The position numbers were made by a program, and so were the translations under genes. Of a stretch of DNA of 64,000 nt, positions 54,279-57,200 are shown piece by piece. Origin of the DNA: Escherichia coli (GTDB lineage Bacteria; Pseudomonadota; Gammaproteobacteria; Enterobacterales; Enterobacteriaceae); the NCBI RefSeq assembly GCF_041886205.1, contig NZ_CP169029.1. One strand, given 5' to 3'. Position 1 is the stretch's first letter; every line of letters starts with the position of its first letter. The notes under the pieces are model-generated. The model searched no databases and was not told the DNA's origin. It saw only the letters and a program-made list of their open reading frames with translations.

Positions 54279-57200
54279 AGTCCATCAGCGCCATCGTTGT
54301 TTTATGTTGAAGCCATCAATTAAATAACCGCACCACATACACTGTACTGTCAGTCATCCGCCGGAGTAAATCCAGCGTCATCGCCATCATGCAGTGAAGT
54401 TTATGTACTGATTTGCCGAAGAAACAGTTTTCGCGTCATGTCCGGTTATCAGCGCAAAGCCGCAGGTGTGCGCGTTCATCAACTCCCGCGTGTACATACG
54501 GAGCTTCATGTCACAACGACATGGCTATTGCCGGGAAGCCTGCTGGTCTTGCCACCGAATTTACAGCTTGTTTTCACCTTCTTTGTGGTGATGTTTGCCA
54601 GGCCACGTGATCAAACTGCTGGATTCACTGTTGTGAAATGTGTGGCCCTCCACCACACACACACACACTGGACCAATGATGCTTGAGCAACATGGTGATT
54701 ATCCTTTTGCCATACATGTCAATGCCCTCCTTTACTGTAACTGACCTTCGAACAAGTCAACGAGCCATCAGGCATGCGCACGTTAGGTGCAGGAATGTTG
54801 CCTAGAAATGTCACTCACACACACACTGTCTCAAATAATTGTTCAGATGCATGGGTACCTGTGTACACACACTCTCTCTTTATATAAAGACTAAATCTAT
54901 GTGGTTTGTAGATGTACATGTCTAGGTCAATGGCAGAAGACTTGACGAGCTGTTTCAATGACTAATTCTTTCCTTGCTGCCGACTGCCACGCCTTGTCGC
55001 CTTTGCCCAATAGCGCAGTATTCCATGAGCACCTCAGCCAATTGCATCTAAATGTTTAACCTTCAACCATTCCTGACTCCACTGTGGTAAGCCCACCACA
55101 CCATGCAAGCCCCAGCTTCAGAGAGGTGACTGGCCAATGGCTTCCTTGATGCATGCCCCCGCTGAGGCCCCAACCCGAGCTGTCACCTTGGGCTATAACG
55201 GTTCAAATTGACCTACACCGGGTGACCGACCTGATCTTTGCCGTTAGATCACGCACAGTCGAACACTTGCACCTGGTGCGTGGGTACCCCTTGTAAATGT
55301 GCAGTGGGCGTGCCACGTGTAACTGCCTTGTCGGCACCCTCGATGAGAGAGACTGACACAGTGTGCCGTCGGATTAGTTCAGAGCCCCAGAGTGCCCACA
55401 TTCCAGAGCTTTGAGCTGCCAGGTGATTAGTGGCACGAACAGGCTTCCCTTGCCAGGAGGACGTGACGGCGCTGAAGAACTTATTTTTTTATACTGCTGT
55501 GTGAACGGTTACACTACTGTGCTATGGGGTTTATGTAGATCCACTTGACCATTGTGTAAGCTGTTAAGAATAGAGTATTAGGGTTTATCATTTTAAGCAT
55601 GCTGTTGTGCGGGTAATGGTTTTTCAGCGATATACCGGGTAAGTGGGTACCAAAGTCGGTCACTCTCAGGCCCTTGTTGATCATGTCATGCTGCTGCATA
55701 GTTGCTGCTGCTGCCTCTTGCTGCCTTATCTTAGTGAGGTCGGCACGTCGGAAGCAGTGCCGCAGGTCGCCTTTCCGGTGTAATAGTTTTTCAGTTGACG
55801 ACGAATATATGTGCCATGGACACTGATTTTTATTGCTGTGGGTGTGTGTGTGCAGGTGGGTAAGAGTTGGACCCCCAAATACCATGTGTCTGTGTCATGC
55901 GCACTTTTGGGGTCAGAGCCCGTGGCGGCAATGGGAACAGTGCCACCAAGTTCAAGAATCCCTTGTGACTAGAAATCAACATTACGATGATCTTCTCCAA
56001 CCCCCACAGGGACCCTCTTCTTTGACTGAAGGGCAAGGGTAATTGGTGCCCTTCCATGGTGGCACGGCCCTAGGTGATGAAGGCTTATAAGAGACTCGAA
56101 CACGTGGAATTTGCTTTGACCTCGTGCTCCAGGGGTATGTTAGACCACCCACCTCTTACCCAGTGAGTGAACAAGTGGTTAATTAATTATTTTGGTGTTG
56201 TTACTGCAATGGCTTGTAGGGTTTGCCCCTCAATTCCAAATGTGTGACGAGAACAGTACCAGGTGAAGCGGGGACCAATTGTCCACGTCGGTACACAGAA
56301 CCACAAGCCCATAAAATATTGTTGTTGCTGTGGAAATGAGTCGAGCCAGCGTCGTCATGGTCAGCGAGATCCTTGCGGCAGTGTGGTGGTGGTATTTATA
56401 GAAGGGTTGTCGTCTTTGCAGAATTGATTTCAATGCCGGACGGTGGATCTTATCAGAGGCGTCAGAGCAGACCCGGCTGCGGTGGTGCTGAGACCTTGTC
56501 AACCACCTTTGCAATTGACTTGTCAATCTGTGTCTTGTGTCGTCATATGGTGGGGTTTGTTCAGTGAGTTGTTAATCATCTGCCAAGCCGACTTGGCCGA
56601 AGTGTAAGCCATCATGCTGACTCTTCCTCACACAGTCAATGTTGTGACTCCCAATCACAGAACCATCGGCACACGATCCATCGCTTGCTCAGGCCAGATA
56701 CCAGCTCCACCAATCTTTACTTTCGGCTCACCGTTGCCGGACTGCATTGTGCGGGCAGCCAGGTGCAAATCGAGCATCTTTCATCGAACTGCACGCCCTG
56801 TGAGGTGAAGCATCTCCATCATCAGTGTTGTGCGGGCCACTCGAATCCGCCTGCGCGAAGCTTTGCTGTTCCCAGACCATCCCGACTGTAGCCAGCTCCA
56901 TCACCAGCCTCGTGAGCCCGCTCTTTGCCAGCGCCAAGCATAGTTCCGGCATCACTGCTCCGTGTTCAAAGGCCGAGCTTGTCAAACGGTCCACCTGGAC
57001 AACAACCACTCGTGCTTTAGGTGTCGCCCATCGAGGTGTTCCATCGCGCCATCGGATAGAGTAGACTCCTCCAGGACTCCATCGAAGAGCTTGCTCGCGC
57101 ACCCAAGTGCGCTCAATGACGCGCTGGCTTCTCTTCACGCTGTGTTACTCGACGGTAGTTCGCAGGCAGTCCGCCCGAAGTAGAGTTGTTTATTCTGATC

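Follow-up and report, generated by a model that had tools for sequence, protein, structure and literature searches.

CA/TG dinucleotide runs in a garbled copy of the Escherichia coli his operon, very probably a sequence-quality artefact

Low-quality 'junk' segments of single-molecule long reads have reportedly been described by Myers. Errors in long reads cluster in such segments, and reads of only 60-80% identity exist (LaPierre et al., 2019, PMC6833143). In nanopore data the strand-aware error profile displays exchanges between A and G at three to five times the level of transversions, exchanges between C and T lying slightly above that level, while the length of short dinucleotide repeats is sometimes 'largely overestimated' (Delahaye and Nicolas, 2021, PMC8486125). 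We consider here a portion of the his operon of Escherichia coli, positions 54276-57423 of a 64,000-nt stretch of contig NZ_CP169029.1 (assembly GCF_041886205.1), henceforth the window, together with the perfect CA/TG dinucleotide runs that it contains. This interval shares with long-read junk segments a clustering of errors with a sharp onset, an identity in the 60-80% range, collinearity with the true sequence, an abundance of insertions and deletions (indels), frame-blind errors, apparently a strand-specific spectrum in which purine transitions dominate when the minus strand is read, and dinucleotide repeats of the kind that are occasionally over-called. It differs from them in that it sits in finished-looking sequence between perfect flanks rather than in a raw read, in that one of its tiers is biased towards insertions, and in a strong loss of CpG that is undocumented for such segments.

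Two further kinds of sequence invite comparison. Eukaryotic (CA)n/(GT)n microsatellites also consist of perfect CA/GT tracts of 5-8 units in CpG-poor, CA/TG-rich surroundings, whereas here the tracts lie within E. coli his genes copied in degraded form, not within eukaryotic DNA, and seem to stand on native motifs already rich in CA/TG. Bacterial contingency loci likewise carry short tandem repeats in coding DNA, as this interval formerly was, but here no intact gene or promoter is served by the repeats, none of the other E. coli examined has the tracts at the corresponding positions, and the background of the species is almost devoid of dinucleotide tracts of this length. A simple-sequence contingency locus was considered and discarded, as there is no intact open reading frame (ORF) and the native homologous positions lack the tract.

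The window covers the E. coli region that comprises the colanic-acid genes, the O-antigen genes (O157-type), gnd-ugd-wzzB and the his genes, these last being encoded on the minus strand. As judged from alignment, positions 54276-57423 reproduce native hisF'-hisA-hisH-hisB-hisC' collinearly but with many errors; the copy is anchored on either side and is organized as follows.

53937-54275, minus strand: hisF, intact over its 3' 339 nt (100% protein identity, HisF residues 147 onward) and native as far as the left junction
54276-56650, minus strand: heavily corrupted tier, the 61% tier or block (hisF 5' 438 nt, hisA, hisH and the 3' two-thirds of hisB)
56651-57423, minus strand: moderately corrupted tier, the 78% tier (native 5' part of hisB and hisC 3' 320 nt)
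57424-58174, minus strand: intact 5' part of hisC, native sequence being back exactly at 57424

The length of the native interval is nearly kept. In the heavily corrupted tier 2375 nt stand for 2428 native nt, in the moderately corrupted one 773 nt stand for 705, and the whole stretch has 3148 nt against 3133, a net gain of 15. Both outer junctions (54275/54276 and 57423/57424) are sharp to the base: window positions 52000-54275 are 99.96% identical to the chromosome of E. coli strain JMF1 and positions 57424-62000 are 100% identical. The boundaries at 54275/54276 and 56650/56651 recur when the window is compared with 15 other assemblies, all of which have an intact hisIE-F-A-H-B-C, and the his operon is intact in every examined contig that encodes the same WzzB or Gnd protein; no such contig is identical to the window. 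The anomaly is unique within the window, because the remainder aligns normally to references. The hisF remnant has exactly 339 nt, or 113 codons including the stop, which places the left junction between two codons. The right junction lies within a codon, and the agreement on the left is probably a coincidence, with a one-in-three chance of occurring.

Standard similarity searches do not reveal this ancestry: BLAST finds no similarity between 54276-56650 and any reference. Global alignment does. Aligned to native hisF-hisA-hisH-hisB, the block scores 444.5, whereas shuffled sequences score -9 +/- 16 and unrelated E. coli segments at most 47.5. In the collinear band 35 8-mers are shared, as opposed to 3.1 +/- 2.7 in shuffles; they are distributed along the whole block, and at the left end their register matches the native junction. 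The aligned identity in 54276-56650 is 61.5%, flat across the block, against 53.4 +/- 0.4% for shuffles. Further on, at 56651-57423, identity rises to about 78%, with 88 bases inserted, 20 deleted and 72 mismatched; many of the insertions are of a single nucleotide. Because the stretch is collinear with the native genes, anchored and nearly conserved in length, it is the native interval after passage through a noisy copying process and not an insertion.

The dinucleotide runs were the feature that drew attention to the locus. The first-pass annotation had quoted four of them within 54651-55854; all four are present, at coordinates that need slight correction, and they lie inside an anomaly that is much wider than that range. 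The first quoted string is found exactly at 54651-54666, the perfect tract within it being 54654-54668. The second had been given one AC too many and is in fact an 11-nt tract, and the third and fourth had been placed 2 nt away from their actual positions. The tracts and the other short repeats of the block are these.

54654-54668: (CA)7.5, CACACACACACACAC, 15 nt, the longest dinucleotide tract of the window
54816-54826: (CA)5.5, CACACACACAC, 11 nt
54865-54879: (AC)4 abutting (CT)4, ACACACAC followed by CTCTCTCT
55345-55352: (GA)4, GAGAGAGA, additional to the four runs quoted at first
55689-55714: trinucleotide runs (TGC)3 and (TGC)4, part of the same short-repeat excess
55842-55852: (GT)5.5, GTGTGTGTGTG, 11 nt
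56319-56327: (TTG)3, part of the same short-repeat excess
56383-56393: (GTG)3.7, part of the same short-repeat excess

That such tracts are rare in E. coli coding DNA and missing from the rest of the window had been proposed from the letters alone, and counting bears this out. Dinucleotide tracts of at least 8 nt number 14 in the 64-kb window, six of them in the 2.4-kb block; the only three that reach at least 10 nt, (CA)7.5, (CA)5.5 and (GT)5.5, are all in the block, and not one CA/TG-type tract of at least 8 nt occurs in the other 60.9 kb. As a background for the species we used 366 kb of the JMF1 chromosome, where there are 31 tracts of at least 8 nt, 21 of CG type and 3 of CA/TG type, and none of at least 11 nt. 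On this background the block should contain 0.017 CA/TG tracts; it contains four (Poisson P = 3e-9). At the homologous positions native his sequence has no dinucleotide tract of at least 8 nt; the tracts do not belong to the native his genes of E. coli. The excess also exceeds what the dinucleotide content of the block would yield. In 2000 dinucleotide-preserving shuffles of the block, which retain its CA/TG excess, the mean number of tracts of at least 11 nt was 0.026; none of the 2000 had three such tracts and none had a 15-nt tract. The tract excess is not due to chance, and the shuffle test excludes a memoryless process, in keeping with the earlier remark that simple random substitution of the his sequence would not create these runs.

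The runs are the visible tip, the extreme tail, of a composition shift that extends over the whole block. Composition and substitution counts are given on the plus strand; the repeat classes, in the last three lines, are compared with window positions 1-34000, not with the native interval that was replaced.

CG count: native 227, block 89
TG count: native 136, block 245
CA count: native 199, block 195
CpG observed/expected ratio: native 1.1-1.23, block 0.49-0.65
CA/TG observed/expected ratio: native 1.1-1.2, block 1.34-1.6
Dinucleotide repeats per kb: window 1-34000 0.03, block 2.53
Trinucleotide repeats per kb: window 1-34000 0.59, block 1.68
Homopolymers of at least 6 nt per kb: window 1-34000 1.41, block 0.42

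A fifth-order Markov model of E. coli describes the block 0.07-0.12 bits/base worse than does the block's own base composition, a misfit comparable to that of the horizontally acquired low-GC genes of the O-antigen cluster. The native sequence under the longest tract is itself rich in CA, with interruptions (CACCAC-CTGAC-CATCAC, facing CACCACACACACACACAC); that aligned to the (AC)4/(CT)4 pair at 54865-54879 is GCGCACACT...TCTTCATATAAAG; and that under (GT)5.5, again TG-rich but interrupted, is TGTGCGGTGC, facing TGTGTGTGTGC, where changes of the CG>TG type are needed. It seems, from an alignment that is ambiguous at this level of identity, that native seeds rich in CA/TG (such as CACCACCTGACCATCAC or TGTGCGGTGC) were smoothed and extended into perfect tracts.

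The substitutions follow a spectrum that depends on the strand.

61% tier: C>T 120, G>A 32, T>C 45, A>G 33; mean of a transversion type 30
78% tier: T>C 23, C>T 6, A>G 9, G>A 1; mean of a transversion type 4.1

In the 61% tier C>T affects 67 of the 204 cytosines in CpG and 53 of the 487 others, and CpG becomes TpG in 62-67 of 204 cases as opposed to 11-15 for CpA; G>A at CpG amounts to only 15 of 204. When the minus strand is read, purine transitions occur at 2.75 times (61% tier) and 3.5 times (78% tier) the mean level of a transversion type, and pyrimidine transitions at 1.1 and 1.2 times that level, respectively. Two features differ between the tiers: the pyrimidine bias is reversed (C>T 120 versus T>C 45 in the 61% tier, T>C 23 versus C>T 6 in the 78% tier), and GC content goes from 0.551 to 0.494 in the former and from 0.518 to 0.568 in the latter. 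A signature of PacBio type, where the inserted base copies its neighbour, was also looked for; 28 of the 88 insertions of the 78% tier and 111 of the 238 of the block show it, numbers near or under a rough random estimate and therefore uninformative.

Coding constraint has left no mark on these changes. Mismatches fall about equally on the three codon positions (78% tier, 27/25/20; 61% tier, 179/133/158), most indels are of 1-2 nt, and the period-3 signal falls from 2.7 in native sequence to 0.5 in the block. Six native His proteins compared with the block by tblastn gave nothing better than E = 0.04. The longest ORF of the block has 123 codons' worth of residues (123 aa), and no reading frame is intact.

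What kind of event can account for such a stretch? The first reading of the letters had set aside ordinary pseudogene decay in favour of a non-native origin, which might be foreign, synthetic or generated sequence, or basecalling or assembly error. Its first half stands: decay is at odds with flanks that are 99.96-100% identical to JMF1 and end at sharp edges, with a divergence unlike that of these flanks, and with the intact state of the his operon in all related contigs. A divergent natural allele is excluded along with decay, because errors are blind to coding, flanks are near-identical and edges are sharp to the base. To be sure, the his-O-antigen region is a known recombination mosaic, and here an O157-type cluster adjoins flanks identical to an O142 strain, which would suit recombination with a very divergent his allele from a distant species. 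Yet HisF, HisA, HisH and HisB are well conserved enzymes and their protein similarity is gone, there is no bias towards third codon positions, indels of 1-2 nt dominate, no long ORF is present and the bacterial collections searched hold no match; the missing codon-position bias and His protein similarity rule out a divergent natural homologue, and we find recombination of this kind scarcely credible. An origin in vivo might otherwise consist in natural decay of his pseudogenes, or in localized hypermutation or error-prone re-synthesis acting on one strand and mediated by a deaminase or a reverse transcriptase. Strand-asymmetric C>T changes, strongest at CpG, and a template-dependent collinearity are what single-strand mutagenic copying gives. 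Against it stand an apparent divergence of some 40% with an indel every few bases, adjoining flanks that are 99.96-100% identical with edges sharp to the base, the simultaneous destruction of five his genes, and the lack of any intermediate state in related lineages, the his genes being intact in all contigs examined. To our knowledge no process in vivo gives such a pattern. Mutagenesis by diversity-generating retroelements (DGRs) is adenine-specific and indel-free, and its target is a short variable repeat that has a template repeat as its counterpart, whereas here A is conserved best (392 of 518), C has changed most, indels abound and the stretch covers 3.1 kb; hypermutation of DGR type was rejected on these grounds, no search having been made for a template repeat or a reverse-transcriptase gene. 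Taken together, an origin in vivo by decay or hypermutation is highly unlikely. Still less probable is its most specific version, that this is real DNA, a 3.1-kb his tract re-synthesized in the cell by error-prone single-strand templated copying, with CA/GT runs made by slippage; mutagenic retro-conversion that is not adenine-specific, or deaminase-coupled repair synthesis, could be candidates for it.

The second half of the early proposal fares unevenly, as error and synthetic or generated sequence hold as a class while the foreign option falls. Foreign DNA taking the place of part of the his operon, whether eukaryote-like with microsatellites or a chimeric contaminant, would explain why BLAST detects nothing similar to the block in E. 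coli, why CpG depletion, CA/TG excess and (CA)n runs recall vertebrate DNA, and why the E. coli Markov model does worse than the block's own base composition. It does not explain a whole-length collinearity with the native hisF-hisA-hisH-hisB far beyond chance, junctions anchored on both sides, a length matching that of the replaced interval, or the continuity of the block with 773 nt that are clearly recognizable as hisB/hisC at about 78%; this reading is refuted for practical purposes and we regard it as very improbable. A horizontally acquired insertion with genes of its own is dismissed likewise, the block being collinear with his, its longest ORF having only 123 aa, and plasmids and phages giving no match. 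There remains a corruption of the native sequence outside biology, and we are highly confident that this is what 54276-57423 represents. The CA/TG runs would very probably be by-products of that corruption, an artefact of sequence quality and not a biological feature.

How the corruption arose is less clear-cut. Native hisF'-hisA-hisH-hisB-hisC' has passed through a very noisy, strand-specific copying process with two tiers of quality, one endowed with memory because the tract excess exceeds that of dinucleotide-preserving shuffles; it destroys CpG (mostly into TpG on the plus strand), breaks homopolymers and favours short-period repeats. In the scenario that we put first, the most likely source would be the raw, low-quality basecalls of a minus-strand read of nanopore type, a segment of which would have patched or bridged an assembly otherwise of high accuracy. 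Such a patch would never have been polished, because accurate reads cannot align to a sequence so divergent. This source is favoured because the strand-specific substitution profile appears to fit, and we give an unpolished nanopore-type patch about even credence. Several observations weigh against it. The his operon is single-copy and non-repetitive, and offers no obvious cause for an assembly gap. Because the flanks are without any indel errors, the rest of the assembly is of short-read or HiFi quality, and the survival of a single junk read would need an unusual pipeline. The 78% tier is dominated by insertions (88 versus 20 deletions), while deletions are usually said to predominate among the errors of nanopore reads (PMC8486125); a CpG loss of 60% with a vertebrate-like dinucleotide signature is no documented nanopore bias; the substitution counts of the 61% tier come from an alignment 8 points over the random baseline; and the step from a noisy copy to a nanopore read is one that we infer.

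A close second, which we hold as possible but somewhat doubtful, is a corruption made by computer, the interval having been exchanged for sequence that came from a simulator of reads or errors, from a lossy sequence model or from a script mutating by context rules. As an example, CG>TG might have been applied on the written strand only, together with the generation of short repeats, and the product spliced between untouched flanks. Two flat noise tiers separated by sharp steps, a length nearly conserved (+15 of 3133), the confinement of CpG>TpG to the written strand, and eukaryote-like dinucleotides (CpG 0.6, CA/TG 1.5) that resemble the prior of a model more than noise would all fit, as would the fact that block, chimeric HisC and largest ORF are unmatched in the collections searched. 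By contrast, simple memoryless scripts would not yield (CA)7.5 or the trinucleotide runs, and the strand-specific purine-transition spectrum of both tiers resembles real nanopore data, although an empirical read simulator would yield it too. Generation de novo by a model from a prompt is ruled out, since identity is flat over 2.4 kb of collinear sequence and the native register is regained at the far junction.

The searches for the block elsewhere were made at several levels. By blastn (word size 11) no similar block was found in 28 Gb of complete E. coli genomes (5,426 of them), and neither plasmids (7.3 Gb) nor phages (2.3 Gb) gave a match. Exact 28-mers and 34-mers of the block are absent from the genome and metagenome collections searched, and neither the truncated HisC chimera nor the 123-aa ORF has its exact product among 153 billion gene positions. 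Biologically, then, the interval brings no new element; its significance is one of quality control. Taken at face value it would have hisF, hisA, hisH, hisB and hisC mis-called as lost or as pseudogenes, and scans based on composition or homology would mis-score the block as a foreign island or as novel sequence. Four tests separate garbled native from foreign sequence and can be reused: collinearity, blindness to codon position, a strand-specific substitution spectrum and dinucleotide-preserving shuffles.

Other features of the window deserve mention. The ancestry of the region is mosaic: at 34000-54275 the O-antigen cluster is O157-type and 98-99% identical to O157:H16 and O157:H7 strains, while the adjacent ugd-wzzB-his flank (52000-62000) agrees at 99.96-100% with JMF1, a strain in which wzx/wzy carry an O142-family annotation; an O157-type cluster beside a JMF1-like flank is the recombination pattern expected at this locus. 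Within this low-GC cluster, a GC-rich segment (0.56) at 45785-47122 is the O-antigen manB paralogue, as judged from an identity of 97% to cpsG, the phosphomannomutase gene of the JMF1 colanic-acid cluster; the high identity of the two genes suggests a recent gene conversion or duplication between clusters. At 28300-28776 an array in which a 96-nt unit, palindromic in the manner of REP/BIME elements (TGCCGGATGCGGCG...CTTATCCGGCCTAC), is repeated in tandem 4.9 times with 95% matches occupies the gap that alignment to JMF1 identifies as wcaK-wzxC intergenic, and JMF1 has the same array. Finally, a perfect (GCCA)4.5 tetranucleotide repeat at 57573-57590, in the native part of hisC, is genuine E. 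coli sequence outside the corruption, because this region is 100% identical to JMF1.

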